A stretch of DNA of 64,000 bases from an uncultured Verrucomicrobiae bacterium. GTDB lineage: Bacteria > Verrucomicrobiota > Verrucomicrobiia > Chthoniobacterales > Chthoniobacteraceae. The notes under the pieces are model-generated. The model saw only the letters and a program-made list of their open reading frames with translations, was not told the origin of the DNA and did not search any database. Location: contig CAWGMG010000017.1 of assembly GCA_963823615.1 (NCBI GenBank), positions 52,730 through 116,729 on the forward strand. Reading direction: 5' to 3'. Of the stretch, positions 25,537-60,429 are shown one piece after another (within the stretch, counting starts at the first letter, position 1; each line of letters starts with the position of its first letter). The position numbers and the translations under genes are program-made.

Positions 25537-28500
25537 CTACCGGCGCGGTGCAGGCCGGAGCGACAGCGATTCGTTCTCGGAGCGCAGCTCGACGGCGTCC
25601 GGTGGCGGCACGGTCCTCCGATCATACGGCCAAGGCGTGGAAAACAACACGGAGGGTGTGGGCAGGAAGCGCGGCGGCTGCGAGGGCGGGTAGGACTGAT
25701 AGAACGGCGTCGCCGCGCGGAACGGGCGGACGCGGTCGCGCTCGCCTCTGGGATAATCCATGGAGCTCGGCTGATAGCTTCTCGTTTCCGGCGTGCACGA
25801 GCGAATCACCATGTTCAGCAGGATGACGCCGAAGAAGATCCAGCGTCCGATGGACAGGGGACCCATGGATTTGCCGCCCCCCGGCTGGCGAATCCAGCTC
25901 GACCGGTACCGCTCGCCGGCGAGCTGCGCCATCAGCCCGACGGCCCGCCGGGTCACCGGCTTGAGCAGCCCGCCGTGCAGATAATTGGCGGTGGGGGATT
26001 GGTTGAGCCGAGCGATGCGGTTGCGCAACTCCGCGGGCCGGCCCGCGGCGGGCGTCCGGTGGACCGAGAGCCCGGCATTCACGACCTCGCGCAGCGCATC
26101 GTAGAACGCGCCGTCGCCGCCGAATTGCGCCGCGCTGGCGAAGCTTGCCGCGTCGTCGAAACGCTGCGCCAGGAGCGCGTCGGAGGCCATCCACAGCTGG
26201 TGGTGGCGCGTCGTGTGATCCGGCGGTTCGGCGAGCGCGCGCCGGCTGGCGGCCACGCCTTCCGGCACGCGTCCCAGTCGCCGGAGCACGACCGCCACGT
26301 TCAACAAAATCCACGGCGGAATCGACGGGCGCCGCTCCCACTCGCGGAACCAGGCGGCCGCTTCCTTGTTCTGATTGAGCTGCACCAGGATCGCGCCGGC
26401 CTGGCCCCAGAGCTCCGTGTCGGCGCGCAGGGCCGGGCCGGAGGCACGCAGCAGCCACCGCAGCTCGTCGAGTTTGCGGTGCTTCGCGAGGCGCTCGAGG
26501 TAGGCGAGGTGCGCGCGCTGGCCGACGGGCGTGGTGAACCCCAGGAACGCCAGCGCGCGATAGGTGCGCGTGCCGCCGCGCTCGCCGACGAGTTCGCCGA
26601 AGAGCCCACCCGCCGCGGGCGAGGCGCCTTCCTCGGTCAGCCACGAGGCCAGCCGCTTTTCGAGCTCCTGCCGCTGGCCGGCGGCGAGGAGCGCCTGCCC
26701 GGCCGCCGCGACCGCGGAGCCGTCTTCGTCGCGAGTGAGGCAGAGCTGCCGCATCGTTTCGAGCGCCTCCGGGAACTCGCGCCGGGCGAGGTGGAGCCGG
26801 ACCTCGCCACCGACGGTCGTGGCGCCGGGGAGGTGCAACTTCATGCGCGCGAGCACTTCCGCGGCCTCGTCGAAGCGCCCGGCCTTGAGGTGCTGCTCGA
26901 AGAGATTGTGCGAGGCGAAGCCGTAGGAGGGATCGAGCTCCATCGCGCGGCGCAGAAACGGGAGCGCCTCCTCCGCGCGATTCGCACGCAGCAGCAGGCT
27001 GGCGCGCCAGCCCAGGGGAATGGCGCTTTGGGGAGCGAGCCGGCAGAGTTGTTCCGTCGCCTCGAGCGCCCCGGGGAAGTTCTCCAACTGCGACTCCCAC
27101 TCGACCAGCCGATGCCAGCCCCAGGTGAAATCCGGCTCGTCGCGCAGCAGCGCGCGCATCGCGGTGACGGCGCCGTGGAGATCGCCCCGCTCGGCGTCGA
27201 CCCAGACCCGGCGGCCGCGCAAGGCGACGGGAAGCTGGTCCGCGGGCCATGCCGCCGGAGCGCAGGCCGCGGCCGCCTCCTCCCAGCGGCCGGCGCCGGC
27301 CAGCAGCAACGCGCGGCCGTCGTGGGCATCGCCAAACCGCGGATTTAGCGCCAGCGCGCGATCGATGGCCCCGAGGCGTGCCGGGAGATCGGTGACGGGA
27401 AGGCATTCCGCGAGGCGCAGCCAGGATTGCGGCTCGGCGGGCCGCAGCTCCGTGAGCGAACGGGCGCATTGCAACGCGCGGCCCTCCAAGCCTGGGCGTT
27501 GCGAGAAGCGGCGCAGCAGATCCCAGCCGGCCTCGTGCCCCGGCTCCAGCCGCAGCGCGCGCTCGGCGGCTTCCGCGGCGGCCTCGGCACGGCCGCGTTT
27601 GTCGAGCAGCGCCGCCAGGTGCGTGTGATTCTCGGGATCGAGCGGCGCCGCGGCGATCGCCACCTCGAGCACGCGCTGCGCCTCGTCGAGATCATCCCCG
27701 CGCTCGTGGGCGGTCGCAAGCGCGCGGGCTGCTTCGCCGCAGGCCGGCTGCAGGACGAGCGCGCGGCGCAGCGGCCGGATCTGCTCCACGCGTTCGCCGC
27801 GCGCCACGTGGACGCGGGCCAGGTTCAGCCAGAGCGGCACGAGCAGCGGGAAACGCTCGGTCGCCTCGGTCGCGAGGGTCAGCGCCTCGTCGAGCTGCCC
27901 CATGGCGGTGAGCTGTTGCACCGTCGCCGACCACGCGTGCCACAGGTCGGGACGCGCGGCGAGCGCCTCGCGCAGTCCGGCCAGCAGCTCCGGCGGCTCG
28001 AGAATCGGGAAGGCCAGATTGCGATAAGAGAGCAGGCCGTCGCCCAGCACCACCTGGCGAATGAGCTCCTGGCGAATGAAGGCGATCGACTCCCGGCGCT
28101 CGCCAAAGCTCTCGCTCGCCGTCAGCAGCTCAACCATGGCCGGCGTGTGATCGACCGAGAGCCGCAGCCCTTCGCGCGCCGCCTCCCGCGCCGCGGGGAG
28201 ATCGCCCGCGAGCCGCGCGAGCAGCGCGCGGATGGCGCAGTTGATCGGTTCGCTTCGCTCCAGGGCCTCGGCCCGCGCCAACTGTTCGCGCGCCTCCGGC
28301 AGGTGCCGCTGATCGGCCAGCGTGAGCGCCAGTTCGCGCCGCGCCCAAGCGTCGTCCGGATTCATCGCCAACAGCGCCTCGACCGACTCCTGCAGCGCCG
28401 CCGCGCCGCTCGCCCGCGCCGATTCCACCGCCAGCCGGCGCAACCCCAGGTGATGCGGGAAGCGCTCGATCTGCGCGGCCAGGTGCGCGTTGGCGGCTTC

Positions 28501-30867: not shown

Positions 30868-30997
30868 CCGCTATGAGAGCATAAAAGCTCTTCCGCGCAA
30901 CGTGTGTCTGGGCGTTGGCGGATCGAGCGTTTTCTCCGCTGCGGCGAGTGAGAGTGCTCAACTCGCGCGCCGGTATTCCTGGCTGGCTAATGGCCTG

Positions 30998-33004
30998 TTA
31001 CACCTTTTTCTCCAGCCCCGCGGCGGTGGCGCGAGCGCCTTCCTTGGCGATCTTTTCCAGGGTCTCCACGCCTTGCGGCGCTTCGCTGATTTCGAAGCCG
31101 CCCTTTTCCGCGACGAGCATGCTCAGCAATGTTTGCAGCAAACTCGATTTCTCGCCCTGGCCGTCCGCGCCGGCAATGAACAGGCGCTCCGGCACGAGCG
31201 GTTGCTTGGAGTTGGCGAGGCGCTCCGAGAGATCGCGCAGCGCGTAGAGGCGGGGATCGCCGTACGCTTTGATCTTCTGGAGCGAGACGGTCGCCTCGGC
31301 CATGCCGACTTGCGTGATTTTCGAGGACTCGCCTTCGCCTTCCAGCTTGAGCGCGCGCGCCCGGCCTTCCGCGATGGTGATGTCGCGCTTGGCCACGCGT
31401 TGCGCCTCGGCCAGCAAGGCGTCGGCGCGGTTGCCCGCCACGTCGATCTCGATGCGCGATTGCGTGAGCTCGGCTTGTTTGCCGGCGGTTGCGCGCGCTT
31501 CTTCCAGCGCCTTCAGGTGGACCGCCGCCTCCTGCTGCTTCGCATAGGTTTCGCGCTGCTCTTCCGCCAGCCGGCGCGTGCGGAGTTGATCGAACAATTT
31601 CTCGATCGGGTCATTCGCCGGATCTTTGACGGACGATTCGGGCCGGCCGATTAACACGGCGACGCAATTTATATCGAATTCCTGGAAACGCCGTCCGAGC
31701 TCGACGGTCGCCAGGCGCTGGATCTCTTCGCGTTTGGTGAGTAGATCGAGCATGCGCGAGCTTTGCGCCACGTCGCGGAAGTACGCAGTTAGGATCGGGT
31801 CGAGCGTTTGCGTGATCAGCCGTTTGACATCGCCGAAGCGCTGCACGACCGACGGCGCTTTTTGATAGTCGATATGCAGCACCAGCGAGAGCGGGAGCAG
31901 CGGCTCATAGCCGTCCGCGGTGATGATCTCGATCGTAGCCAGCGCGTCGTCATACTGATGACTCTCGCTTTGCCCGGTGATCCAGCGCAGGACGAAGTTC
32001 ACCGTCGGCACGAGCTCGATCTTAACGGCATAAGGATTGAGCGCATACTTGCCGGGCGTCAGCGCGCGTTTCCACACGCCTTTTTCGCCGGTGCTCACTT
32101 GCTCGCCATAGCGGAAGCCTTCGCCCGTCGTGTCGGTGCCGAGCGAACCGTAGTAAGAGACGACCACGCCGACATAGCCAATCGGGATCAGCGTCTTGGT
32201 GCCGAACTCGACGGTGGCAAACCAGCGGTTAATGAAGAACGTGCCGTCCGTCAGCACCTGGAGCTGCCGGCCGCGGCAACCGCCATGCGCCAGGAAGGTC
32301 TCTGGGTTCTGGAAGTAATTGTGATCCATCGCGATTTCCGGGGCGATGATTTCGCCGGCGGGAATCGTCGGGCCATCATGCACCGAGACGACACCGATGC
32401 GGTCGACCATCACGCCGTCCTTATCCGGCCCGGTGGTGATGACGACCGGCCGATAGCCGTTGACCGCCGACAGCTCCGACTGCCATTTCTGATAAGTGGA
32501 GTTTTCCTCCATACTATAGATTTGGGTCTCGGTTAACACGACGAACAGCGAGGTGTTAATGGCATAAACACCTTCGCGCAGGATGGCGCGCTGGCGGCCG
32601 CGCTGCCCGCCATTGGCGAGGAAGGTTTCCGCTTCCTGGAAGTAGTTGCAGTCGACCGTGCGGCCGAGCGTTTGCGTCGGCTCGAGCGGAGCGCCACCGC
32701 GCGCATAGACATAACCGATCCGGCCTTCCGCGACGGTGATCAGCGCGGTGCGATGAATCCTATACTGCCACGGGAAGAGGCCGAAATGCAGGCCGCCGCG
32801 GAGCAGCCGCGCCTGGAAGCCGGCCTCGCCCTGGGAGGCGATGATGCGGCCTTCGGCGAGCGACCCTCGAGAGCTCCAGAGCTTCTCGATGACGCCGACG
32901 CGGCTGTGTGGAATATAGACGACGCCGAGGACCCGAGGCAAAAAGAAGGCCAGGGCGGCGAGGGCGGCGATGAGGATTGCCCACAAGATTTGCGAGGTGG
33001 ACAT
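30998..33004 (-). CDS. flotillin / SPFH (band 7) family protein
   Basis: N-terminal TM, SPFH domain, then long Ala/Glu-rich coiled coil (..AEEQRETYAKQQEAAVHLKALEEARATAGKQAELTQSRIEIDVAGNRA..). Confidence 0.85.
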   Translation of the reverse strand: MSTSQILWAILIAALAALAFFLPRVLGVVYIPHSRVGVIEKLWSSRGSLAEGRIIASQGEAGFQARLLRGGLHFGLFPWQYRIHRTALITVAEGRIGYVYARGGAPLEPTQTLGRTVDCNYFQEAETFLANGGQRGRQRAILREGVYAINTSLFVVLTETQIYSMEENSTYQKWQSELSAVNGYRPVVITTGPDKDGVMVDRIGVVSVHDGPTIPAGEIIAPEIAMDHNYFQNPETFLAHGGCRGRQLQVLTDGTFFINRWFATVEFGTKTLIPIGYVGVVVSYYGSLGTDTTGEGFRYGEQVSTGEKGVWKRALTPGKYALNPYAVKIELVPTVNFVLRWITGQSESHQYDDALATIEIITADGYEPLLPLSLVLHIDYQKAPSVVQRFGDVKRLITQTLDPILTAYFRDVAQSSRMLDLLTKREEIQRLATVELGRRFQEFDINCVAVLIGRPESSVKDPANDPIEKLFDQLRTRRLAEEQRETYAKQQEAAVHLKALEEARATAGKQAELTQSRIEIDVAGNRADALLAEAQRVAKRDITIAEGRARALKLEGEGESSKITQVGMAEATVSLQKIKAYGDPRLYALRDLSERLANSKQPLVPERLFIAGADGQGEKSSLLQTLLSMLVAEKGGFEISEAPQGVETLEKIAKEGARATAAGLEKKV

Positions 33005-47559: not shown

Positions 47560-50067
47560 TCACATCTCTTCCGACTCCAGATCGACCAGGATTTCGCGCG
47601 GCTTGGCGCCTTCGCCGGGGCCGACGTAGCCGCGCATTTCCATGATGTCGAGGATGCGCGCGGCGCGCGTGTAGCCGAGCCGCAGCCGGCGCTGGAAGAG
47701 CGAGGTCGAGGCCTTCTTTTCCTGGCGCATGACCTCGTAGCATTTCTCCACGAGCTCCTCGTCCTCGGCGCTGACTTCCTCCTCTTCGTCCTCGCCGTCG
47801 CCTTCGAGCTTCTGATGGATGGCGCTCTCGAACTGCGGCTCGCCTTGCGCGGAAGCGTGCTCGACGACGCGGCGGACTTCGTCGTCGGAGACGAGCACGC
47901 CTTGCGCGCGGACCATGCGCGAGGTGCCCGGCGGCCGGTAGAGCATGTCGCCCATGCCGAGGAGCCGCTCGGCGCCGTTTTCATCGAGAATGACGCGCGA
48001 ATCGAGCGCCGACGCGACCTGGAAGGCGATGCGGCACGGGACGTTCGCCTTGATGACGCCGGTGATGACATCGGCGCGCGGCGTCTGCGTGGCGATGATC
48101 ATGTGGATGCCGGCGGCGCGCGCCTTTTGCGTGATGCGCGCGATGGCGCTCTCCACGTCGGCCGGCGCGGTCTGCATGAGGTCCGCCAACTCGTCGACGA
48201 TGATGACGATGTACGGCATCTGGTCGGGGACGATGAGGTCCATCTCGCGCGAGTTGCGCTGCTTGCCCATGTTCGTCACGCGCTCCTCGGAGGTGAGCGT
48301 CTCGGGGTCGACCGGCGCGGGTTCCACCGCCGGCGCGAGCGGGTCGAGCAGCGAGTCGTCGAAAAGCGCGGCCTGGCCCTTCTCGGCATCGAGCTCCTTT
48401 TGCGTCTTCGTCTTCGGCCGCGCGTTGAAGCCGCCGATATTGCGCACGCCCGTCTTGGCGAAAATGGCGTAGCGCTTTTCCATTTCATCGACCGCCCACT
48501 TCAGCGCGAGCAGCACCTTCTTCGGATCGGTGACGACCGGCACCACGAGGTGCGGCAGCGTATTGTACATCTGCATTTCGACCACCTTCGGGTCGATCAT
48601 GATGAAGCGCAGATCCTTCGGCGTGAACCGGTAGAGAATGGAGGAGATGATCGAGTTGATGCAGACGCTCTTGCCCGAGCCGGTGGTGCCGGCGACCAGG
48701 CCGTGCGGCATCGCGGCGAGATCGGCGATGATCGTCTTGCCGTAGACGTCCTTGCCGAGCGCGATCGGGATTTTGCACTTGGTCGAGTGAAATTCCTCGC
48801 TCTCCAGCAGCTCGCGAAAGGCGACCTTCTGCTTCTTGCAGGTTGGCGATCTCGATGCCGACGGTGTCCTTGCCGGGGATCGGCGCGAGGATGTTGATCC
48901 GCTCGGCGCGGGTGGCGCGCGCGATGTCGCGCTCGAGCGCGGTGATGCGATCGACGCGGACGCCCTTCGCCGGGTAGACCTCGTAGCGCGTGATGGTCGG
49001 GCCGCGCGTGATGTCGCCCGCGCGAGACCTCGATGCCAAACTGCGCGAGCGTCTCGATGATGACGACCTGCAGCGCCTTCAGCTCCTCCGGGATCGGCCG
49101 CCTGCCGGCTCGCGAGATCGAGCGGGTCGAGCAGATCGAACGACGGCATGCACGTAGTTCTCGCAGTCGACGCTCGCGAGGGTCGGGCGTCTCCTCGGGC
49201 TTCTCGCGCTTGATCCGCGGGAGCGGCGGCACGCTGGCATCGAAGATGACCGGCTCCGGCCGCGCCGGCTCGAGCGGGCTCCGCCGGTGCGTCGACCGGC
49301 GCGGGGATGACGAGCGTCTCCGCCTCGGCCTCGGGCGAACCGACGCGCACGGTGTTTTTCTTGAGCCGCTCCTTCGCTTCCTTCGCCGTCGGCGGCGTCA
49401 GCGCGCGCAGCTTCAGCGCCTCCTCCCTCGCCTTCGCCGCCGCGCGGGCTTCGCGCCAGGCGTGGACGCGCTCCGGCACGCTGCCGGCATACGCCAGGCT
49501 GCGCCGCAGGAGCGACACGGGCTGCAAGCCGGTCAGCAGCACGAGGCTGATGACGTAGAGCAGCGTGCAAATGATGAGCCCGCCGATGTGGCCGACGACC
49601 GCGTGCAGGAAATCGCCCGCGATCCATTTCCCGAGCCACCCGCCCTCGCCCGGCAGCCCGAGCCGGCGCGCATCGAGCACCGACCACGGCAGCAGATGGA
49701 GCAGGCAGGCGCCCGCGACGACGAAGACCGCCGCCCAGACCGCGCGCATGGAGAGCCGGAGGCTCGGCGAGAGCAGCTTGGCCCCGCCGCACCCGAGCAG
49801 GATCGCGGTGAAGAGATAAGAGGCCGCCCCGAGCAGCGAATACGACAGGCAGGCCATGATGGCCCCGAACGGCCCGATGAAGTTGCTGGAAACCCGCGCC
49901 GACCGCGCCACCGAGGCGAGCGGGAACCACGTGGGGACATCGTTCGGGGCGTAAGAGACGAGCGAGAGGAAGAGGAGGGTCCCGATGCCGAGCAGCACCA
50001 GGGCGACGACTTCGCTGTAGATGTGGTGCTCGCGGATGCGGGCGAGAGAGGTCTTGGAGGTCGCCAT
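47560..50067 (-). CDS. ftsK: DNA translocase FtsK/SpoIIIE (multiple internal frameshifts ~48480-49060)
   Basis: N-terminal TMs MATSKTSLARIREHHIYSEVVALVLLGIGTLLFL..; Walker A LVAGTTGSGKSVCIN; ..MIIATQTPRADVITG..; gamma domain RRLRLGYTRAARILDIME; middle part spread over 3 frames. Confidence 0.85.
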   Translation of the reverse strand: MATSKTSLARIREHHIYSEVVALVLLGIGTLLFLSLVSYAPNDVPTWFPLASVARSARVSSNFIGPFGAIMACLSYSLLGAASYLFTAILLGCGGAKLLSPSLRLSMRAVWAAVFVVAGACLLHLLPWSVLDARRLGLPGEGGWLGKWIAGDFLHAVVGHIGGLIICTLLYVISLVLLTGLQPVSLLRRSLAYAGSVPERVHAWREARAAAKAREEALKLRALTPPTAKEAKERLKKNTVRVGSPEAEAETLVIPAPVDAPAEPARAGAAGAGHLRCQRAAAPADQAREARGDARPSRASTARTTCMPSFDLLDPLDLASRQAADPGGAEGAAGRHHRDARAVWHRGLARATSRAARPSRATRSTRRRASASIASPRSSATSRAPPAPSGSTSSRRSPARTPSASRSPTCKKQKVAFRELLESEEFHSTKCKIPIALGKDVYGKTIIADLAAMPHGLVAGTTGSGKSVCINSIISSILYRFTPKDLRFIMIDPKVVEMQMYNTLPHLVVPVVTDPKKVLLALKWAVDEMEKRYAIFAKTGVRNIGGFNARPKTKTQKELDAEKGQAALFDDSLLDPLAPAVEPAPVDPETLTSEERVTNMGKQRNSREMDLIVPDQMPYIVIIVDELADLMQTAPADVESAIARITQKARAAGIHMIIATQTPRADVITGVIKANVPCRIAFQVASALDSRVILDENGAERLLGMGDMLYRPPGTSRMVRAQGVLVSDDEVRRVVEHASAQGEPQFESAIHQKLEGDGEDEEEEVSAEDEELVEKCYEVMRQEKKASTSLFQRRLRLGYTRAARILDIMEMRGYVGPGEGAKPREILVDLESEEM

Positions 50068-50180
50068 ACGTGTCTTCGGCGGGGAGTTATTCACAATTGT
50101 GAGCGAGGTTGGCGAGCAGGAAGCGCGAGACAGAAATGCCGCCGGCGGCTGAGGGGAATTTTGCACATTTTGCAAAGGGG

Positions 50181-50414
50181 TCTCAGAGGAAGAGCGGGCG
50201 CCGTGGCGCCGGAGGCCCTGAGCGTGGCGAAGGTGCCGCAGGCCCTGAGCCGGTCGAAGGGTTTCGGGAAGGTTTGCGCAGTTTCGCGGGACGCTGGACG
50301 AGGCATTTCGGGAATTTCGGGAATCGCGCTCAGAGTAAGTGAAGGAGCCGGCGAGAGGAGGCTGAGGCGAGGTTTCGGGAAGGAATGCGCAGTTTTCACG
50401 GGAGTGGCTGGGCG
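50181..50414 (-). repeat. tandem repeat array (same family as 19957-20590, inverse orientation), part 1: ~2 units ending at the intron 3' junction
   Basis: rc units ..cgaaatgcctcgYccagc..gaaaactgcgcattccttcccgaaac..; terminal palindrome module at 50155-50189. Confidence 0.85.
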
Positions 50415-52498
50415 AGGCATTTCGGTAGAGTAGGCGGGAAGCGACGGATTGAGAGGCACACGGCCAATGACCGTCTGCTTCCCGCCCCTCATCAAACCGG
50501 ACAGGCGGTTTTCCCGCATCCGGCTTTCCGAGTTCCATTCTCGAAAAGCGCTGTCTCATGTGCATGGGGTCGGCATTTTGTAGAGCCCGTATTGCGTGAA
50601 GAGTTCCCGATTTGCCCAGCGTTTGTATTTGCCACAGGGATTGCCGTGCTTGCGCCATAACCACTGCCGGAGGCGGTGGGCCACGAAGGTATTCAGTTGC
50701 CCGAAGCTCCGATGGTACTGGGCGAGGGCAAAGAAATTGCCCCAGCCACGGGTCACTTGGTTGATTTCACGCACGACTTCCTCGGTCGCTCTCCACACGG
50801 AGCGCGCGTGGGTTAGCTCGCGCACCCGGTCGCGGAGCGCCTGCCCCTCGGCGGGCTCGGGGCCTTGAGCTTGTCGAAACGGCTCCGCTTCCGGGCTGGG
50901 CTCGATGTGCACGTACGCCGTCTTCTTCTTGGATTGTTGCCAGCGGAAGCTGAAGCCGAGGAACTCAAAACCGCTTTCACGGCTCTGGAGCACTTCGGTT
51001 TTCTTCTCGTTGAGGGCCAGGCCGCGGCTTTGCAGCCAGCGGGCCAGCCGCTCCTTCATGCCCGCTCCTTGCCCGGTTCCGCAGAGGATGACCAGATCGT
51101 CCGCAAAGCGGACCATCCACGGCTTTTGCCGGCACTGTTCATTGACCCCTTCATCCAGCGGATGCAGGTAAATGTTGGCCAGCAGGGGCGAGATGACGCC
51201 TCCCTGCGGTGCGCCGCAGGGGTTGGCCTTCATCTTCCGCCCGCCGCCTTTCTCCTCCTCCATCACCGGGGCGCGCAGCCATCCTTTGATGAGCTGGAGG
51301 ATCGTCCCGTCCCTCACCCGCCGCGCCACCAGCCGCAGCAGTTTCCCGTGCGGGATCGTGTCGAAGTACTGCGCCAGATCGGCGTCCACTACCGAGGAGG
51401 CGGAGGGGACAAGGGAGGTTGCAGGGCGGGCGAGCCCTTCGGTGCGGCCACTGCGCAGCCCCTGCCGGATCGCCTCCACCGCCCCGTGCGCTCCACGCCC
51501 GGGCCGATAGCCGAAGGAGAGCGGATGGAAGTCCGCCTCGAAAATCGGCATCAGCACCAAGGACACGGCCATCTGCACCACGCGATCCTTCACCGTCGGG
51601 ATGCCCAACCGGCGCACCCCTCCATCGGGCTTCGCGATCTCCGCCCGGAGCACTGGCGCCGGCCGGTACGTCTTGGCGCGCAACTCCTCCCGCAGCGCCT
51701 CCAGCCACGCCACTTCCTTTTCCTGATCTGCCGCAAGGTCCGCAATCTCCACTCCAGCAACCCCCGCGACCCCGCCATGGGCCTTCACGCGCCGCCACGC
51801 TGTCTCCAGCACATCGGCGCGCTGCACCTCTCCATACAGACTCCAGAACCGGGAGCCCGGACTGGACTTCGCTTTCCGATACAGCGTGATTTGCAACTGC
51901 CGAACCTTTTTGGGTGCTGGTAGCTCCTGCGAGCCGTCACCACGGCTCGCCCGGGACCCTGCCGCCACTTGTCCCGTGCGCCGCCGCCTCGGTCCTTCGT
52001 TGCGCTTCACTTCTGCGGAACAAGTGGCGTCCCTTTGCTCCCCCATGTTTTCTCCGAACCAGAGGTCCAGCATGGGATCAACGCTACTACGAACGCCTCC
52101 GACTTCTGCCGTGGCCGCACGGCCTCCCTCTTTCGGAGAGGTTGGGCCGCTTGTTGAGTCAGGTTTACTCGCCATGGCAGATCTCCCCGTTTACCCGCAC
52201 ATCACTTCGCGACATGTCGTCCACGCCGACCCCGCCGGTCTAATATCCCCACCCGCGACGGTTGGTCTGGGTGCGGACTCTTCGGCCTTCGCCCAAATTC
52301 CAGGGGCTCGGCTGCCGGGAGTATCCTTTCGAGGCTCATTTATGTGGTTCATATGGTTATTACGACCTGCCGGTTCGACTCCATGCCTGCTCCCCACCCC
52401 GCCTCGCGGCGACGCAGTTGGCACGGTCTTCGGTGCTGAACCGTCTAAGTGCACCGGCGGGACTTGCACCCGCGTTGATGTGCGCTTTGCGGGCGCAC
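50415..52498 (-). mobile_element. group II intron (2084 nt) with intact RT/maturase ORF
   Basis: 5' end GUGCGCCCG (rc of 52490-52498); domain V aaGCCGGAugCGGgaaaaCCGccugUCCGGuu (rc of 50481-50516); domain VI GGGCGGGAAGC..GCUUCCCGCC then ..uacucuac 3' end at 50415; IEP ORF lies between. Confidence 0.85.
50556..52175 (-). CDS. group II intron-encoded reverse transcriptase/maturase (true start probably at an internal Met, ~52046-52073)
   Basis: RT0-RT7 motifs: ..VLETAWRRVKAHGGVAGVAGV.., IAKPDGGVRRLGIPTVKDRVVQ, FADDLVIL (YADD variant); maturase/X domain; C-terminus GNPCGKYKRWANREL. Confidence 0.85.
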   Translation of the reverse strand: MASKPDSTSGPTSPKEGGRAATAEVGGVRSSVDPMLDLWFGENMGEQRDATCSAEVKRNEGPRRRRTGQVAAGSRASRGDGSQELPAPKKVRQLQITLYRKAKSSPGSRFWSLYGEVQRADVLETAWRRVKAHGGVAGVAGVEIADLAADQEKEVAWLEALREELRAKTYRPAPVLRAEIAKPDGGVRRLGIPTVKDRVVQMAVSLVLMPIFEADFHPLSFGYRPGRGAHGAVEAIRQGLRSGRTEGLARPATSLVPSASSVVDADLAQYFDTIPHGKLLRLVARRVRDGTILQLIKGWLRAPVMEEEKGGGRKMKANPCGAPQGGVISPLLANIYLHPLDEGVNEQCRQKPWMVRFADDLVILCGTGQGAGMKERLARWLQSRGLALNEKKTEVLQSRESGFEFLGFSFRWQQSKKKTAYVHIEPSPEAEPFRQAQGPEPAEGQALRDRVRELTHARSVWRATEEVVREINQVTRGWGNFFALAQYHRSFGQLNTFVAHRLRQWLWRKHGNPCGKYKRWANRELFTQYGLYKMPTPCT

Positions 52499-53210
52499 GG
52501 AATTACGGGAATCGGTCTCAGAGTAAATGAGGGAGCCGGGTGAGCCGGAGGCCCTGAACCTGTCGAAGGGTTTCGGGAAGGAACGCGCAGTTTTCGCGGG
52601 ACGCGTGGGCGTGAATTTCGGTAATTTCGGGAATCGCGTTCAGAGTAAATGAGGGAGCCGGTGAGCCGGAGGCCCTGAGCCTGTCGAAGGGTTTCGGGAA
52701 GGATTGCGCAGTTTCGCGGGACGCGTGGGCGTGAATTTCGGTAATTTCGGGAATCGCGTTCAGAGTAAATGAGGGAGCCGGTGAGCCGGAGGCCCTGAGC
52801 CTGTCGAAGGGTTTCGGGAAGGTTTGCGCAGTTTTCGCGGGACGCGTGGGCGTGAATTTCGGTAATTTCGGGAATCGGGCTCAGAGTAAATGAGGGAGCC
52901 GGTGAGCCGGAGGCCGTGAGCCTGTCGAAGGGTTTCGGGAAGGTTTGCGCAGTTTTCGCCGGTTCCGGTCGTCCCATTCTTCCCCTGCTTCCCGTCCCCG
53001 CGCCCGGTCCGCGACCAATTTCGGTAATTATGGGAATCACCCTCAGAGCGAATGAGCAGATACGGAGGGTAGTTTCGGAACAGATTGCGCAGTTTCGCGG
53101 GAAAGATGGCAGCGCGAGTTTCGGTAAGTGTGGGAATCGCCCTGAGAGTGAATGAAGGACGCGGAGTGGCATTTCGGGAAGGATTGCGCGGTTTCGCGAG
53201 ACGGCGGCCC
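52499..53210 (-). repeat. tandem repeat array part 2: ~4 near-identical 120-121 bp units (starts 52499, ~52613, ~52733, ~52854) then ~2-3 degenerate units
   Basis: Unit gaatttcggtaatttcgggaatcgcgttcagagtaaatgagggagccggtgagccggaggccctgagcctgtcgaagggtttcgggaagg(a/t)ttgcgcagttt(t)cgcgggacgcgtgggcgt. Confidence 0.9.
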
Positions 53211-53685
53211 GCGGATGCGGGAATGTGGCAAGCGGTTCGACCGATCGTGCGGCACAAGCGGTGCCCTCCCGGGAACGCCAATCTCGCGATTGGCGCAGCT
53301 GGCGGTTCACGCAGCTGGCGGTTCAAGGAGTCGGGGCGCCCTCGCCCCGAGTTTCTGGCCCGCGCCGCGCTGCGGGCCGCGGCGGCCGCGACTCGCCAGC
53401 GGAAGATTGGCGTTCCGAGGGGGCGCCTTGCGCAGCGCGCGCCCGACCCGCGGCGGCAGTGACACCGCTGGGTCGGAGACGGGGGTGAAGTGGCGAGCGG
53501 CCCAATGCGCATTCCGCCATGCTACCACAGGTTCTCGAATTCTGTGTTCCATACACGAAGATGTTGTGAGCGCCTGCGTGGGAGCCAATTTTTGCCTACT
53601 CGAGACTCGCGTCATCGTCGTGTTCCACAACTACTCTCACGTTTTCGACATTTTCGGCAAGCGGCTCCGTGAAGGGCCCCACAAA

Positions 53686-53773
53686 GGGTGGAACCGCCAA
53701 GACGCCAAGGCGCCAGGAAAAGCTGATGGATCGTGGTCTTCCTTGGCGTCTTGGCGTCCTGGCGGTTCCACCC
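53686..53773. repeat. ~32-bp imperfect inverted repeat (about 29/32 pairing) with 23-nt loop; strong hairpin
   Basis: gggtggaaccgccaagacgccaaggcgccagg ... ccttggcgtcttggcgtcctggcggttccaccc. Confidence 0.7.
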
Positions 53774-53962
53774 TTTTGATTCCGGCTCTGTCGGGGTTAG
53801 GCATCTCGGTGCAGCGACCTGAACAGCCAACGAAATGACTCGAATTGAAACGAATGGTTTGCAGCCTTCCGTATTCGATTCAATTCGGCGTGATTCGTTG
53901 GCCCTCGCGCTTGCCTTCACTGGCAGACTCAGGCTCAATCCCAGCCACCTCCGGGACCGCTC

Positions 53963-56928
53963 ATGGCATATCGTTTCGATGTCGCATTCTCCTTCGCCGG
54001 CCCTCACCGCGAGAAGGTGCGGGCCATCGCCGAGCTTGTCGCGGCGAAGCTCGGGAAGAAGCGCGTTTTCTTCGACGAGTGGTACCGAGCGGAAATCCTC
54101 GGGGGGAATATGCGCGTGCTGCTCCAGCGTATCTATGGAGAGAAAAGTCTCATGGTTGTCGCGGATCTTTCGCAAGACTACGCCGATCGGCCTTGGAGTC
54201 AGGGCGAAAGCGAGGCCATCGATGCTCTGCGGATGCGAATCGACTCGGCGCGCGACGAGACCGCGCGCCTGCGGGTGTTCATCGTGCGCTTCGGTCCCGG
54301 CGAGGTGCCTGGCGTCTTGGAAAACACCGGCTGGCTCGATGGCGCAGCCCTCTCCGTGGAAGAAATCGCCGGCGCGATTTTGGAGCGACTCGACCTGCTC
54401 AATGAACGCATGGGCGAAAGCGCCACCCCTGCCCCGCCACCGCCGGTCCCCTTGGCTCCCTCTCTTCCAGCGTCCCCCTCTTCCGCTCCGCCGATCCTCT
54501 TCTTTCACCCCGCTACCAACGACGCCCTCTACTCCCGGCGCGAGCGCGAGTTGGACTGGCTCGACGAGTGCGCGAAAAATCCCGCAATCCGCATCGCCAC
54601 CGTCACCGGCGTCGGTGGGCTGGGGAAGACCTCGCTCGTCGGGCATTGGATCGAGAAGGCGCGCGGCTGGCAGCATCGCGCCTTTCACGGCGTGTTCTTC
54701 TACAGCTTCTATTCCGATCGCGACCCGAAGCATTTCTTCGCGGCGTTCCTCCAATTCGTCTGCGAGCAGGAGAAGATCGAGGCCCTTCCTCCGGATCGTC
54801 CGCTCCATCATCTTGCGGCCGCAGCGGTGCGCAAGTGGTGCTACCTCGTGGTGCTCGATCGGCTCGAGGTGCTCCAGCACGACGAAAGCGATCCGCACTA
54901 CGGCTGGATCAACGACGGCGCGCTCAATGAATTCGTCGCGCGCGCCGGGGCGGCGGGGCCTTCGCTGCTCGTGCTCACCAGCCGCTTCCCCTTCCCGGAA
55001 GTCACGCGCGAGCATCCCGAGGCCGCCCGCGCGTGCGAGCTGCCCCTGCTTACCGACGACGAAGGCGCCGACCTGCTCGCCCATTGCGGTCTCGACGGCG
55101 GGCGGGAGAAGCTGCGCGGCTACAGCCATCAATTTGGCGGGCATCCGCTCGCGCTGCGGCTCTTTGCCGGCGCGTGCCTCGCGCAGCCCTTCGATGAACC
55201 GGAGACGGTGAGCCGGCACTTGCTCGCGGCAGGTGCGGAGGCGGGCGAAGAGGACGCGCATCGCCGGCAGTTCCGCAAGCTGCTGCTCTGGCTGCAAAAG
55301 AAACTCCCCGTAGAAAAGCGCCGACTGCTCCAGCTCGTCGCGCTCTTTCGCGAGCCGGTGCCCACAGCCACGCTCGCCGCGCTCGCCACGGGGCTCGATG
55401 CGATGAAGGCGGACTTCGGCGATTGCGACGCTGCGCGTCTCCTTTTCCTCCTTGATGCCCTGGTGCGTGATCAGTTTACTCCAGCGCGAGGAAGCGCCCG
55501 GCAGCGACACCGCCCGCTGGGCGGCGCATCCCATTGTGCGCGAGGTCTTCCGCGTCGAGGCACTGGCGTCTGGCGACACGGTCGCGCAGCAGTTTGCCGG
55601 GATCGTCGCGGGAAAGGGGGCGGGCCGCGCGCCCCGGAGCGTGGCGGAATTGCAGCCGATTCTGGAGGCGATCGAGTTGCTCCTCGCTGCGGGGGATTTC
55701 AAGTCGGCCGATGAGGTGTATCGCGGGCGGTTGGAGAATGGTGACGTATTCAAATGGATTCCCGCCCCGCATGAGGGGCTGCATTGCGCGCGGGGATTCA
55801 TCGAGCCGCAGGAACGTCGCGCAACGCTGGAGCAATTGGTCGGGCGGGAAGCGACAGCGCGCTACTTCAACGCTGTGGCGGGTCTTGGAAGCATTGTTGG
55901 CGAAATGGACCGGGTGGAGAGCCTGTATATTGAAATGCGCTACCTCTACACGGTCGAGTGCAATTGGAACGCCATCTCCGGTAGTTTCCAAAGCCTCGCG
56001 GCGGTTCAAACACTTCGCGGGATGCTGCGAGAGGCGGTCGCGCGCGCGAACGAGGCTCTCGCTTTTTGCGGGATCCAAGCAGTGAGGACATCTTGGAACG
56101 TCCCGCCCCTCCATCCAACGGACAAGCTGAACATTTTGATCGATAAAGATTTAAACTGCACTTCCCTCGCATACCGGGCAAACGCGCTTTCACTCGCGGG
56201 GGAATTGCCCGCCGCCGGTCGTGACTTTGCTTCGTCCGATACGCTCCAGCGCTTGGGTCACCGCGAAAACGTCGCACTTCACTCGCTCCGGGGCATCCAG
56301 TGGTGCCGCCATTGTCTGCGCCTCGGCGAGGCGGACGGCGCCCGCCGCCTCGCTGAGGCAAATTGGAGCGATCTGCGCGCGGAATCAATGGACCGCCGAC
56401 CTCGCCGCGTGCGACCTCCTCCTCGGTGAACTCGATTTCGCAGCGGGCGACCGCGATTCCGCCGAACAACGAATCGGCGCGGCCGTGCGGATCTTTCGCG
56501 AGGCCCGGCAGGGGATGGACCTCCCTGACGCGCTGCTCGCGCAGGCGCGGCTGCGGGGGAGCATTGAGGATTGCGAAGAGGCGCTGCGGCTCGCGGCCCG
56601 GAGCGGCTTTGCGCTGAAGCAGTGCGACGCCCTGAATCTCCGCGCCCGTCTCCGGCGTGAGGCCGGCCAGCCCGCCGACGCCGCCAAGGATGCCCGCGAC
56701 GCGCTCGATATCGCCGAGCGGTGCGGCTACTACTGGGGCCGGCATGAAGCCTTGCGCCAGCTTCGCGATGTCGCGAAGGCGCTCGGGAATCGCGCGGATG
56801 AGAGGCATTGGGACGAAGCCGAAAAGGCGCTGGCTGCGCGCATGAAGCCGGAGGTCGAAGAGGCGCTGCGGATCAATCGCGAGCACGATGCGGAAATGGA
56901 GCGGCTTTACGGAAGGCCGAAGCCGTAG
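53963..56928 (+). CDS. TIR - NB-ARC (STAND P-loop NTPase) - TPR protein, NLR-like; split over 3 frames (shifts ~55440 and ~56250)
   Basis: TIR: FDVAFSFAGPHREKVRAIAELVAAKL..VFFDEW..SLMVVADLSQDYADRPWSQGESEAI (conserved Glu present). P-loop IATVTGVGGLGKTSLV; hhhhD LVVLDRLE; LLVLTSRF; C-terminal TPR-like repeats to ..ERLYGRPKP. Confidence 0.7.
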
Positions 56929-57223
56929 CATAGGCAACCCTGGACCAAATGCGGACCGGTCGCTGCAATGGCGCCCACTCTATGTCAACAATTTGGGTTC
57001 GGCCATCGGCGCATCCAGGTAGCCCTGCCCGCGCCGGCACGGGCGACGTGACGATTCACGTGCTGTAACTCCGGAGCTTGGCGCCGCTCGCTTCCGCACC
57101 AACGCCCGGGAGGGGTGCGCCAGGCGGTGGAAAGGGCGGAGTTGTCATCGCGCACGGGGCGGCTCAGACTCATCGCGGTTCCCTGGGGGCACATCGGGGT
57201 CAGGCGACATTTCTTGACAGACC

Positions 57224-57248: not shown

Positions 57249-58337
57249 ATGCCTCGCAGCTTGCGCATCCAGTACCCCGGCGCGTTTTATCACGTCATGG
57301 CGCGGGGCAATGGACGGGCGGATATCTTTCGCGGCGATGCGGACCGGACGCTTTTTCTCCGCACGCTCGGCGAAGCCTGTGGGCGGACCGGCTGGCGCGT
57401 GCACGCCTGGGTGCTGATGCGCAATCACTACCATGTGGTGCTGGAAACGCCGGAGCCGAATCTGGTCGAGGGGATGCAGTGGCTGCAGAATGCTTACACG
57501 CGGCGCTTCAACACGCGGCACCGCGGCTGGGGCCGGTTATTCGGCGACCGCTACAAGGCGGTGCCCGTGGAGGGGGAAGGGTACTACTACGAGACGCTGC
57601 TGAAATCGCGGGCGCATCACGCGCGCAGTCCGAATACCGTGGAGGGGGAAGGGTACTACTACGAGACGCTGCTGGATTACGTCCACCTGAACCCGGCGCG
57701 CGCGGGGTTGATTCCGATGGCCAGCGGCGGAAGTCTGCGCGACTACCCGTGGAGCAGCGTGGCGGCCGGATACGCGCTGCCGCCGGGGCGCCGGGCGAAA
57801 TGGCTCGCGGTGGAGGACGGCCTGGCGAGCTTTGGCTGCGGCGATACGGCGGCTGGCCGCCGCAGTTTTGTCGCGCGGCTCGATGTGCGCGCTCTGGAGG
57901 AGCCGCGAGCCAAGACGGGCTTGCCGGCGCTCGATCCGGAGCGTGACCGGCGGAGGAGCACGCTGGCGGACGGCTGGTACTGGGGGAGCCAAGCCTTCGC
58001 GGAGCGTCTGCTGGCGCTGGGGGAAGCAGTGATCGGACGTCCCGGGCACCGATCCGCGCGGAGTACGCAGGAGAAGCGCGCGCATGGCGAACTGGTCGCC
58101 CGCGAGCTACTCGAGGAAGGGCTCCGCCGGGCGAAGCTGACCCGTGAAGAGCTCCCCGCTCTTCCTGGGAGCGATCTGCGCAAAGTGGCGCTCGCCAGCG
58201 CGATCTGGGAGCAAACCATTGTGAGCATGGCATGGCTGGCGGAGCATCTGGCGATGCGGAGCGCGGCCAATGCGAGCCAGCAAATTCGCCGCTACCGGCT
58301 GGCCCAGGCCAAGCCGCTGTCAAGAAATGTCGCCTGA
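57249..58337 (+). CDS. IS200/IS605-family Y1 (HUH) transposase, RAYT-like N-domain fused to DnaA-C-terminal-like HTH domain
   Basis: AFYHVMARGNGRADIF..HAWVLMRNHYHVVLETPEPNLVEGMQWLQNAYTRRFN (HuH = HYH; catalytic Tyr in NAYTRRFN); C-terminus SDLRKVALASAIWEQTIVSMAWLAEHLAMRSAANASQQIRRYR resembles DnaA domain IV; internal 36-bp perfect direct repeat 57567-57602 / 57639-57674. Confidence 0.75.
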   Translation: MPRSLRIQYPGAFYHVMARGNGRADIFRGDADRTLFLRTLGEACGRTGWRVHAWVLMRNHYHVVLETPEPNLVEGMQWLQNAYTRRFNTRHRGWGRLFGDRYKAVPVEGEGYYYETLLKSRAHHARSPNTVEGEGYYYETLLDYVHLNPARAGLIPMASGGSLRDYPWSSVAAGYALPPGRRAKWLAVEDGLASFGCGDTAAGRRSFVARLDVRALEEPRAKTGLPALDPERDRRRSTLADGWYWGSQAFAERLLALGEAVIGRPGHRSARSTQEKRAHGELVARELLEEGLRRAKLTREELPALPGSDLRKVALASAIWEQTIVSMAWLAEHLAMRSAANASQQIRRYRLAQAKPLSRNVA

Positions 58338-58481
58338 CCCCTATGTTTAAGTGACCCCTATGTTTAAGTTCCCATCTCGCTATTTAAAACACCCGATGTC
58401 TGGCTCGTCGCCGGCGTCGCTTATGGTATCGCGACAGGTGAGAACGACGCTTTTACGGGCGAGGCATTATCAAAGCCATTT

Positions 58482-58715: not shown

Positions 58716-58797
58716 GCACATGGGGGTCAGCACATGGGGGTCAGCACATGGGGGTCAGCACATGGGGGTCAGCACATGGGTCAGCACATGGGGGTCA
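58716..58797 (+). repeat. tandem 14-bp repeat cacatgggggtcag x~6, an amplification of a unit present once at 57199-57212
   Basis: cacatgggggtcagcacatgggggtcagcacatgggggtcagcacatgggggtcagcacatgggtcagcacatgggggtcag. Confidence 0.85.
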
Positions 58798-58843
58798 GGC
58801 GACATTTCTTGACAGGCCGGGTGGGTTTTCGTGAAATCGTCGC

Positions 58844-58905
58844 ATGCCTCGCAGCTTGCGCATCCAGTACGCCGGCGCGTTTTATCACGTCATGGCGCGG
58901 GGCAC
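58844..58905 (+). pseudogene. truncated duplicate of the transposase 5' end (first ~20 codons plus promoter block)
   Basis: MPRSLRIQYAGAFYHVMARG identical/near-identical to 57249-57308, then diverges into the antisense 3' end of the HK gene. Confidence 0.6.
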
Positions 58906-58949
58906 TGCCTCGACACCTACTCGTAAACTCAGCCGCGGGCGCGCCCGGT

Positions 58950-60179: not shown

Positions 60180-60219
60180 GGAATTATGCAATTGGCGCGC
60201 GCGCGATGCCCGTAACACA

Positions 60220-60338
60220 GGCTTCCAGCCTGTGCGGCTCGCGGGCTTCCAGCCCGTCGAAGGAACTCACCGGTCGCTGAGTCCGGCGGCGGCGGCTTCG
60301 GCAGGCTGGAAGCCCGCCGGACGCACAGGCTGGAAGCC
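60220..60338. promoter_or_regulatory. four copies of 11-bp near-palindrome GGCTTCCAGCC (2 direct at 60220 and 60244; 2 inverted at 60304 and 60328) upstream of the HK gene
   Basis: caggcttccagcctg .. gggcttccagccc .. aggctggaagccc .. aggctggaagccc. Confidence 0.45.
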
Positions 60339-60429
60339 CGGGTTACGATGGCGCCGCGTCCCTCGATTTGCATACATGAAGATGATGAGGATGGCTTCGT
60401 GTTCACGCGCAATGTGATCCGTCGCGGCA

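Follow-up and report, generated by a model that had tools for sequence, protein, structure and literature searches.

Three overlapping open reading frames (ORFs) on the + strand, each in a different frame (53963-55714, 55452-56429, and 56221-56928), lie within the 64,000-nucleotide stretch of DNA analyzed here, the whole of which is referred to as the window. A preliminary description had read them as one candidate defense gene, encoding a TIR - NB-ARC - TPR protein of the STAND class and split by indel errors. The locus thus raises two questions: whether the three ORFs constitute a single gene whose frame breaks are artifacts, and whether its product is an immune receptor.

Reconstruction of the gene and nature of the frame breaks

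Three intact homologs of approximately 1,000 aa (P0002, P0003, and P0004) aligned collinearly across all three frames by tblastn, with 60 to 77% identity. Deletion of one base at each break site yielded a 987-aa ORF with zero internal stops, which shares 75% identity over its full length with P0002, an intact 1,015-aa protein from Prosthecobacter. High-GC DNA yields many long spurious ORFs, and 71 ORFs with a length of 50 aa or more are present across 10 kb here; even so, the reading of the three ORFs as separate genes, or as chance ORFs of a GC-rich region, is refuted by the collinear tblastn matches, the alignment of locus DNA, and the restored ORF, and we assign it a probability close to nil. 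The split into three frames was therefore described correctly, and all of the motifs quoted in that description were located in the corrected product: FSFAGPHR (aa 9 to 16), RPWSQGESE (aa 76 to 84), and the three NTPase motifs GVGGLGKTS, LVVLDRLE, and LVLTSR. The coordinates of the gene, its domains, and the surrounding features are given in Table 1.

Table 1. Features of the TIR-STAND locus and its surroundings (positions are those of the window)
Feature	Position	Strand	Remarks
Intron_gpII	50425-50528	-	Rfam
Group II intron ORF (RVT_1 + GIIM)	50556-52175	-	
Upstream hairpin, inverted repeat with 38-nt arms	53683-53776		187 nt before start codon
Whole TIR-STAND-TPR-like gene	53963-56928	+	Stop codon 56926-56928; from ORFs, collinear tblastn, and corrected ORF
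TIR domain	53963-54427	+	aa 1 to ~155; E82 codon 54206-54208
Pro/Ser-rich flexible linker, TIR to NTPase	54422-54493	+	aa 154-177
STAND NTPase (NBD, helical ARC-like domain, winged helix)	54494-55643	+	aa ~178-560
Walker A, GVGGLGKTS	54608-54634	+	aa 216-224
Walker B, LVVLDRLE	54845-54868	+	aa 295-302
Sensor-1, LVLTSR	54968-54985	+	aa 336-341
GxP motif, GGHPLAL	55136-55156	+	aa 392-398
Frameshift 1	55473-55478	+	+1 insertion (CAGTTTAC; relatives one base shorter); frame of 53963 to frame of 55452
MHD-like motif, AHP	55521-55550	+	aa 521-523
Alpha-helical TPR-like repeat domain, putative sensor	55644-56925	+	aa ~561-987
Hypervariable patch in repeat region	55854-56303	+	aa 631-780; conservation profile
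Frameshift 2	56361-56366	+	+1 insertion (AATTGGAG versus AATCGA-G); to frame of 56221
Y1_Tnp	57249-58337	+	

DNA alignment traced the breaks to two +1 insertions in the window gene, both missing from four homologous loci (L001, L003, L004, and L005). At the first site (~55475) the window reads GATCAGTTTACTCCAG where the relatives read GATCA-CCTGCTCCAG, and at the second (~56363) it reads AATTGGAGCGATCTG where they read AATCGA-GCCATCTG. As a GC3 frame plot was too noisy for frameshift mapping, a self-trained codon-usage Viterbi path was used instead; it changes frame at 55477 and 56383 in the gene and also recovers the frame switches in ftsK and hisS. Both of the latter genes are split over three frames in the same window, ftsK by three breaks and hisS at no fewer than two sites, and in dltD-like, DLH-like, and htrA-like genes the cut falls at an ORF edge. 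As nearby essential genes are broken likewise, the two frame breaks have the appearance of indel errors of the assembly; they are most likely single-base insertions introduced by the assembly and not real inactivation, and the earlier suspicion of indel errors is strengthened accordingly. The breaks belong to the deposited assembly, since the NCBI/ENA record is of a truncated 583-aa product (P0001). A 23-mer from the strain-specific variable region had no exact match in JGI metagenome contigs, and this search thus supplied no second, independent assembly of that population for comparison at the insertions. Programmed frameshifting or phase variation was rejected because the sites are neither slippery nor long homopolymers (TTT; A3/T2/G2), because the relatives keep their frame at both, and because housekeeping genes are equally broken.

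The presence of the breaks in a deposited assembly, with two independent ones falling within 3 kb in a gene surrounded by mobile elements, could also be explained by a true pseudogene, in which two real +1 insertions abolished the function of a once-working TIR-STAND gene; the cost of keeping an NADase receptor prone to autoimmunity is one conceivable cause. Two close relatives in other assemblies are likewise broken, although elsewhere in the gene (L003 has lost 10 nt, and L004 carries a +1 in an A7 run). We nevertheless regard a pseudogene as unlikely, given that the density of breaks in the essential genes of the same window (three in ftsK and at least two in hisS) is similar or higher. Moreover, once the two bases are removed the gene shows no stops and no deletions and retains all of the family-invariant residues (among them E82 and those of Walker A, Walker B, sensor-1, and GxP), while identity to the intact homologs is even along its length except in a patch that is variable across the family.

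Domains of the encoded protein

The N-terminal region has a flavodoxin-like TIR fold. Its residue E82 is invariant among 50 family sequences; in alignment it falls on the Glu of the WCVRE motif of RPS4, which places it at the Glu of the W-x-x-x-E motif in the alpha-C helix, in agreement with the conserved Glu claimed at the catalytic position. This alpha-C-helix Glu is catalytic in plant TIRs. The Pfam model TIR_2 (PF13676) scored 20.3 bits on the window protein, below its gathering cutoff of 28, and matched 11 of 16 family members at an E value of ≤0.01 (best, 6.6e-7). The segment that joins the TIR domain to the NTPase is the family's lowest-conservation stretch, and its equivalent in the AlphaFold model of P0002 (residues 170 to 194) has a pLDDT below 50.

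Downstream of the linker, the motifs of an AP-ATPase/NB-ARC module are found in order (Walker A, Walker B, sensor-1 TxR, GxP, and a winged-helix MHD-like His), and the structure model shows an NBD, a helical domain, and a WHD. The invariant residues G216, G218, G219, G221, K222, T223, D299, T339, S340, R341, and G393 are all present in the window copy. Matches to Pfam models were subthreshold, with NB-ARC (PF00931) at 17.2 bits (gathering cutoff, 23.5) and NACHT (PF05729) at 19.4 to 20 bits (cutoff, 26.7), and AAA_16, ATPase_2, and nSTAND1 also fell below threshold; at the sequence level the NTPase thus matches the NACHT and NB-ARC models about equally. When the family profile was compared with PDB sequences, the NTPase region matched only NB-ARC proteins, namely 9h2l (5.6e-7), NRC2, and Sr35. 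A fold search with the nucleotide-binding oligomerization module (NOD) returned 6mfv (1e-11), Apaf-1 (1.8e-8), CED-4, Avs3 (8dgc; 7e-7), and plant NLRs (NRC proteins and ZAR1). The first NACHT structure in that search, NLRP9, stood at rank 44, and membership of the bacterial NACHT (bNACHT) proteins was rejected on this ranking and on the subthreshold NACHT score. The NTPase is predicted to lie nearer to Apaf-1, CED-4, and plant NLRs, a supported placement that comes from the profile-to-PDB and fold comparisons only, and the P-loop NB-ARC module of the preliminary description is upheld by its motifs as well as by these matches.

The C-terminal repeats were modeled in P0002 as all-helical over residues 582 to 1007 with a pLDDT above 90. 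TPR_12 scored 19.7 bits on the window protein, below its cutoff, and the family profile matched the TPRs of kinesin light chain at 9e-11, so that the description of this region as TPR-like holds. The conservation profile shows that the C-terminal end of the domain is conserved. The proposed order of TIR, NB-ARC, and TPR is supported by the family profiles, by structure modeling, and by the fold searches. The Pfam check suggested for these domains, in which a lack of significant TIR or NB-ARC hits was to count as refutation, was answered in part: TIR_2 and NB-ARC stay below their gathering scores on the window protein itself, and the family profiles and folds support the domains. Because the Pfam matches are subthreshold and PADLOC returned nothing, the case for the domains is built on profile and fold evidence.

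Genomic context, relatives, and predicted role

The gene sits in a stretch rich in mobile elements, as previously described, with the group II intron, the Y1 transposase, and duplicated fragments all recovered, the last together with tandem repeats. The strong upstream hairpin was also found; its arms are 89% complementary, with a fold energy of -79.8 kcal/mol (z = -9.9), and it may represent a terminator or what remains of a mobile element. A repeated REP-like element was rejected for this hairpin, as it occurs once in the window. Promoters and terminators sought around the gene did not exceed the shuffled expectation. The gene's own neighborhood consists of mobile elements and housekeeping genes and is not a defense island: no known defense genes were found there or around P0002 (L001), and no conserved adjoining partner gene was seen in two neighborhoods (the window and L001/L002).

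Relatives of the protein carry other effectors on the same chassis of NOD and sensor, with TIR replaced by SIR2_2 in P0069 to P0072, P0076, and P0078 and by SEFIR in P0073 and P0075, while P0080 has a Metallophos domain at its C terminus. The SIR2_2-NOD-TPR proteins P0069 to P0072 share 33 to 36% identity with the window protein over 75 to 79% of its length. Most of the 228 cluster representatives identified at an E value of ≤1e-30 align from the NOD onward only and have another N terminus of approximately 320 aa. The SIR2 end of the homolog at L010 matches LmuA, ThsA, and Dsr1, a gene neighboring the homolog at L019 matches ZorD/DpdE, and large proteins bearing ThsB-like TIR domains are clustered at L018.

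Taken together, the product is probably an NLR-like, single-chain STAND immune receptor comprising a TIR domain, an Apaf-1/NB-ARC-type module, and a TPR-like sensor, encoded by a verrucomicrobial gene whose breaks are assembly errors. Its role in defense is suggested by its architecture and its relatives. TIR domains are found among the Avs proteins, and E. coli is protected by "TIR-II" systems, in which TIR is combined with TPR and in some cases also with an ATPase (PMC11350192). In prokaryotes, 589 STAND clades have been distinguished, of which 198 are defense associated; most of the 198 have TPR-like sensors (PMC13581612). A preprint that scanned bacterial genomes for TIR signaling set Avs TIR domains aside among likely NAD+-depleting effectors (10.64898/2025.12.03.692087). 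A mechanism can be proposed on the model of Avs proteins, plant TNLs, and SARM1. At rest, the sensor and an ADP-bound NOD would hold the protein monomeric; binding of a protein from a phage or another invader to the variable patch of the repeats would then permit nucleotide exchange and oligomerization. Oligomerization would gather the TIR domains into composite NADase sites around E82, and destruction of NAD+ would stop growth of the infected cell (abortive infection). As no conserved partner gene was seen, direct NAD+ depletion appears likelier than production of a signaling nucleotide for a second protein.

The defense-system check proposed at the outset came back empty: searches of PADLOC-DB v2 (Avs1 to Avs5, ThsB, and other models) gave no match at an E value of ≤0.1 for the three ORF pieces and none for P0002, and NCBIfam had no match for the gene or P0002. 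Some STAND-TPR proteins, MalT and AfsR among them, regulate transcription, and TIR domains can also serve as scaffolds or produce signaling nucleotides. Instead of being an antiphage receptor, the window protein might function as a switch of the MalT/AfsR type or as a TIR scaffold in cell-cell or stress signaling, with its TIR domain as an interaction module or signaling-nucleotide producer. The lack of a PADLOC match and of a defense island around the window gene and L001 fits such a role, as do the best fold match, 6mfv, a STAND-TPR protein without an assigned role, and the AfsR/SARP and BTAD regulators with NB-ARC and TPR among the distant profile matches. We consider a regulatory function rather improbable, however, since the window protein has no DNA-binding domain, the domains swapped at the N terminus (TIR, SIR2, and SEFIR) are death or immune effectors, the Glu shared with RPS4 is invariant in the family, and relatives adjoin defense genes or bear defense-type SIR2 ends; nor was a conserved adjacent signal-receiving gene seen in the window or L001.

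A further reading we hold to be doubtful. In it, the N-terminal module would be a distinct TIR clade, undetected by all PADLOC TIR models and subthreshold in Pfam, with its own invariant set (FSFAG-x-x-R, D38, Y58, S62, E82, and R142), shuffled in Verrucomicrobiota, Acidobacteriota, and Planctomycetota onto many different C-terminal chassis. Joined to the NOD and the hypervariable TPR-like sensor, the module may mark an Avs-type family that is as yet uncharacterized, which could recognize a phage component and could yield a product other than plain NAD+ hydrolysis, and the breaks in three independent assemblies might be due in part to the repeated, genuine loss of function of a costly receptor.

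TIR-STAND receptors correspond in bacteria to the TNLs of plants and the NLRs of animals, and each new clade of them adds a sensor of unassigned specificity and a TIR variant of unassigned product. The present clade comes from little-studied Verrucomicrobiota of soil and freshwater and is missed by PADLOC models, and therefore marks a gap in such databases. The more useful practical result is a caution: probable single-base indel errors occur across the window, ftsK and hisS included, so that calls of "split ORF" or "pseudogene" made on it should be distrusted until the consensus has been corrected.

Comparison with known systems

A Thoeris system (ThsB + ThsA) was rejected, as the TIR domain forms one protein with a STAND NTPase, no ThsB model of PADLOC matched, and the neighbors are the Y1 transposase and repeats. 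Apaf-1, CED-4, and the archaeal STAND-TPR protein PH0952 (6mfv) provide the best structural matches to the NOD, and 6mfv shares the arrangement of NOD and TPR; they are structural relatives only. Their effector is CARD or none, and the sensors differ too, that of Apaf-1 being WD40. Plant TNLs (RPS4, RPP1, and ROQ1) resemble the window protein in the order of TIR and NB-ARC-type NOD, in the W-x-x-x-E Glu in the same helix motif, and in the GxP (GGHPLAL) and MHD-like (AHP) motifs, and plant NLRs supply the sole NTPase matches of the profile-to-PDB search. However, TNLs have an LRR and C-JID where the window protein has all-helical TPR-like repeats, identity is only approximately 12 to 20%, and the window protein is bacterial, with no EDS1-type pathway and NAD+ depletion as its likely output.

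Among bacterial systems, the SIR2-STAND proteins (Avs5; P0069 to P0072) differ in their N-terminal effector, although P0069 to P0072 have the NOD and sensor of the window protein. SIR2 and TIR are both NAD+-consuming effectors. The SIR2 relatives have no Avs5 model match, the L010 homolog matching only the three proteins named above and only via its SIR2 end. TIR-II of E. coli is, by description, also a single-protein system of TIR and TPR, approximately 30% of its members having an ATPase as well, and its phage protection depends on the TIR active site (PMC11350192). Its host belongs to a phylum other than that of the window protein.

Avs (AVAST) proteins are reportedly antiviral STAND NTPases, as Gao et al. 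are said to have described in 2020 and 2022. The group has since been expanded to Avs7 to Avs21, with ~198 defense-associated clades (PMC13581612). No PADLOC model of Avs1 to Avs5 matches the window protein, and Apaf-1 and plant NB-ARC are nearer to its NOD than any of the tested Avs proteins. It is nonetheless Avs-like in the broad sense, being one large protein with an N-terminal effector, a STAND NTPase, and a C-terminal TPR-like sensor, with an interchangeable effector (TIR or SIR2) on a conserved chassis, a patchy phylum distribution among the matches listed, and Avs3 among its fold matches. Our verdict is that the window protein is an Avs-like TIR-STAND protein and belongs to an already known kind.

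A single gene in three reading frames

Three overlapping plus-strand ORFs, each in its own frame, were listed within positions 53963 to 56928 of the window. When the first ORF was searched against a database, its exact 583-amino-acid product was recovered from NCBI/ENA (P0001), and thus the two breaks belong to the deposited assembly. The same search identified intact homologues of approximately 1,000 amino acids in Verrucomicrobiota-type genomes and metagenomes. Of the full-length homologues, the closest is P0002, a 1,015-amino-acid Prosthecobacter protein named "toll/interleukin-1 receptor domain-containing protein" by NCBI. Using tblastn against the window, it was found that P0002 and two further proteins (P0003 and P0004) cross all three frames collinearly. 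A DNA alignment with four homologous loci revealed one base more in the window than in the relatives at each break, with GATCAGTTTACTCCAG against GATCA-CCTGCTCCAG near 55475 and AATTGGAGCGATCTG against AATCGA-GCCATCTG near 56363. Removing one base per site gave a 987-amino-acid ORF without an internal stop, sharing 75% identity with P0002 from residues 3 to 986. This confirmed that 53963-56928 is a single gene, broken twice, as the preliminary description of an ORF split into three frames had it.

Other genes in the window are broken similarly. In ftsK, the 4TM, FtsK_SpoIIIE, and gamma domains share the frame of one minus-strand ORF (47560-50664), the second half of FtsK_alpha lies in a different frame (ORF 48485-49039), and the preceding piece is in a third, a split that suggests assembly indel errors. 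The histidyl-tRNA synthetase gene hisS (15468-16771, plus strand) consists of three pieces in three different frames. Pfam matches of the DltD-like, dienelactone-hydrolase-like, and HtrA-like genes (10131-14694, plus strand) begin abruptly at the ORF edge, and in two of them, the DltD-like and HtrA-like genes, the absent N-terminal piece is visible in an adjacent frame. A window-trained Viterbi path based on codon usage picked up the points where the target gene, ftsK, and hisS change frame, together with many more same-strand switches in the window, including between 9.8 and 18.4 kb. Essential genes cannot all have decayed into pseudogenes, and single-base indel errors must therefore be frequent in the window; the parts examined contained at least 10 confirmed cases. 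Of all the results, this indel-riddled consensus carries the most practical weight.

Two breaks in a 3-kb gene fit that background, and indel errors had been proposed as their cause from the outset. The alternative is a true pseudogene, inactivated by real breaks; two close relatives from other assemblies (loci L004 and L003) are likewise frame-broken, elsewhere in the gene. However, ftsK and hisS are broken in the same way, and the corrected target protein retains every family-invariant residue. Because the window is rich in indels and these residues are intact, assembly error is, on sequence grounds, rated far above a true pseudogene.

Coordinates of features in the window, in the corrected 987-amino-acid protein (aa or residues), and in two homologous loci
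Feature	Coordinates	Strand	Remark
HtrA-like gene	10204-11187	+	Pfam match begins at ORF edge
Dienelactone-hydrolase-like gene	12268-12900	+	Pfam match begins at ORF edge
DltD-like gene	13822-14694	+	Pfam match begins at ORF edge
hisS piece 1	15468-15740	+	tRNA-synt_His profile positions 1-68
hisS piece 2	15739-15900	+	tRNA-synt_His profile positions 69-120
hisS piece 3	16106-16771	+	tRNA-synt_His profile positions 231-302 and anticodon-binding domain
ftsK breaks	near 48838, 49024, 49279	-	Three frames within ~450 nt
~120-nt tandem repeats	50156-50404 and 52501-53203		2 to 3 units to one side of the intron, ~6 to the other
Group II intron	50425-52480	-	Within ~120-nt tandem repeat array
Intron domain V/VI	50425-50528	-	
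Intron RT/maturase ORF	50556-52175	-	
Target gene ORF 1	53963-55714	+	First frame
Target gene ORF 2	55452-56429	+	Second frame
Target gene ORF 3	56221-56928	+	Third frame
30-nt inverted repeats around Y1 gene	57191-57220 and 58317-58346		
Y1 (IS200-like) transposase gene	57249-58337		
TIR_2 (Pfam)	aa 7-126		20.3 bits vs cut-off 28; below threshold (window protein alone)
NACHT (Pfam)	within aa 181-404		20 bits vs cut-off 26.7; below threshold (window protein alone)
NB-ARC (Pfam)	within aa 181-404		17.2 bits vs cut-off 23.5; below threshold (window protein alone)
AAA_16, ATPase_2, nSTAND1 (Pfam)	within aa 181-404		All below threshold (window protein alone)
Walker A	residues 216-224		GVGGLGKTS
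Walker B	residues 295-302		LVVLDRLE
Sensor-1	residues 336-341		LVLTSR
GxP	residues 392-398		GGHPLAL
MHD-like	residues 521-523		AHP
TPR_12 (Pfam)	third ORF		19.7 bits vs cut-off 30.1; below threshold
L004 frame break	L004:1590-1710		+1 in A7 run
L003 frame break	L003:2190-2300		10-nt deletion directly past PILFFHP

Domain composition and predicted fold

The TIR and NB-ARC assignments stand narrowly as HMM matches, as Pfam scores were all subthreshold, whereas the family evidence was stronger. In a 50-sequence alignment, residues A8, S10, A12, R16, V19, A23, D38, Y58, S62, E82, L89, and R142 of the N-terminal module are invariant. Its AlphaFold model (pLDDT 87.8, pTM 0.79) matched almost exclusively TIR domains in Foldseek, with AbTir-3AD at the top (3.4e-5), followed by MyD88, TRAM, SPARTA TIR-APAZ, RPS4, RUN1, SpbK, and RPP1. 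A TIR-only profile compared against all PDB sequences found only plant TIR domains (RPS4 at 2.6e-4); its segment YadreWcqaEaraI aligned with YTESVWCVRELEKI of RPS4, placing E82 opposite the RPS4 Glu, which is catalytic in plant TIR NADases. Both the TIR fold and the conserved Glu at the catalytic position, noted in the preliminary description, are thereby upheld.

Five NTPase motifs occur in order and are invariant or almost so across 16 full-length relatives. Against PDB sequences, the NTPase region of the family profile matched NB-ARC proteins only, led by the wheat G10 resistosome (9h2l, 5.6e-7) and then NRC2, Sr35, NRC3, and MLA13. The full-length model of P0002 (pLDDT 87.5, pTM 0.77) comprises a TIR domain (10-168), a disordered linker (170-194), a nucleotide-binding domain, helical domain, and winged helix up to approximately residue 557, and a C-terminal part of approximately 420 residues of helical repeats. 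In the fold search, this model came closest to the archaeal STAND-TPR protein 6mfv (1e-11), Apaf-1 (1.8e-8), and CED-4; other top matches included Avs3 (7e-7) and plant NLRs such as NRC2/3/4 and ZAR1. Given the matches to 6mfv, Apaf-1, and plant NLRs, with the highest-ranked NACHT protein (NLRP9) only at rank 44, the modeled NTPase is a divergent STAND module closest to the AP-ATPase/NB-ARC clade, in agreement with the P-loop NB-ARC module first described. The equally weak NACHT matches are probably due to the LDGLE consensus of Walker B.

C-terminal TPR-like repeats, likewise predicted, were recovered with the family profile, which matched kinesin light chain TPRs at 9e-11, and in the fold search, which found APC/C TPR subunits and LGN. 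Within the folded protein, conservation is lowest at residues 631 to 780 (0.36 to 0.45 mean pairwise identity) and highest over the final 120 residues (0.7 to 0.8). Such a pattern would be expected for a ligand-binding patch under diversifying pressure.

Genomic setting and relatives

The mobile-element-rich setting and upstream hairpin previously described were all found. One flank carries ftsK, a group II intron inside a 120-nt repeat array, and a strong hairpin, and the opposite flank carries a histidine kinase gene and a Y1 transposase gene bordered by 30-nt inverted repeats. The Y1 gene contains a perfect 38-nt direct repeat (57565 and 57637, 72 nt apart) that duplicates 24 codons, and its 5' end recurs as a 124-nt copy with 96% identity at 58784-58907, preceded by five units of the 14-nt tandem repeat GCACATGGGGGTCA (58716-58797). 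Another large inverted repeat, its 52-nt arms 87% complementary and separated by 33 nt, is located downstream of the histidine kinase gene (60211-60347). Composition is approximately 65% GC except at 26000-31000 (72 to 75%, with a 1,776-amino-acid minus-strand ORF at 25537-30867) and 4000-7000 (52 to 57%).

No known defense gene was found around the target gene in the window, and neither PADLOC, a check suggested in the preliminary description, nor NCBIfam gave a match for the target protein. The P0002 locus (L001) is likewise bordered by housekeeping genes, and comparison of these two loci identified no conserved partner gene.

A profile search identified the same chassis of STAND NTPase module (NOD) plus repeat sensor with a SIR2_2 end (P0069 to P0072, at 33 to 36% identity and 75 to 79% coverage to the query, P0076, and P0078), with SEFIR (P0073 and P0075), and with a C-terminal metallophosphoesterase (P0080). 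An exhaustive phmmer search with P0002 returned 228 cluster representatives at an E value of ≤1e-30, the majority being approximately 1,100 amino acids long, with alignments starting at the NOD and a different N terminus of approximately 320 residues. The TIR module occurs on other partners, including proteins of approximately 400 amino acids and an LRR-nSTAND1 protein (P0077). The TIR domains of the L003 and L004 proteins form a distinct subtype (49 to 67% identity versus 67 to 74% for the remaining protein), a pattern suggesting exchange of the N-terminal module.

Distribution of the family is patchy, including Chthoniobacteraceae, Prosthecobacter, Myxococcota, a "Kuenenia" MAG, Acetobacteraceae, Sedimentisphaerales, and cyanobacteria. 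PADLOC showed defense links in three distant loci: the L010 homologue has a SIR2 end with matches to LmuA, ThsA, and Dsr1; a gene adjoining the L019 homologue matches ZorD/DpdE; and L018 holds clustered large proteins with ThsB-like TIR domains. In the last, from a Nitrospirae MAG (L018:4834-21925), a distant NOD-sensor homologue sits amid three further large genes whose N termini are ThsB-like TIR domains, apparently a cluster of paralogues that contain TIR domains.

Proposed mechanism and known systems

If the protein acts as Avs proteins, plant TNL resistosomes, and SARM1 do, the repeat domain would bind an invader protein, the NOD would exchange nucleotide and oligomerize, the TIR domains would cluster into active NADase sites around E82, and infection would be aborted through NAD+ loss. 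Neither of the two neighborhoods examined has an adjacent receiver gene, which favors NAD+ depletion over second-messenger signaling as the likely output. TIR domains are found in Avs proteins, and protection of E. coli by the "TIR-II" system, TIR+TPR(+ATPase), needs the TIR active site (PMC11350192). In a scan of bacterial genomes for TIR signaling systems, a preprint set Avs TIR domains aside among likely NAD+-depleting effectors (10.64898/2025.12.03.692087), and a 2026 survey found 198 of 589 prokaryotic STAND clades to be defense associated, most with TPR-like sensors (PMC13581612). This literature supports the general scheme.

Comparative genomics reportedly revealed this architecture as early as 2004, when Leipe, Koonin, and Aravind described the STAND superfamily; the one new point here is that PADLOC's defense-system models miss this clade and its TIR variant. 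The target protein is no member of Avs1-5 by those models, falls outside bNACHT by score and by fold, and is no component of Thoeris. As it is without an LRR, it is not a plant TNL, but it shares the TIR-NB-ARC front half of one and would work like an Avs-type receptor.
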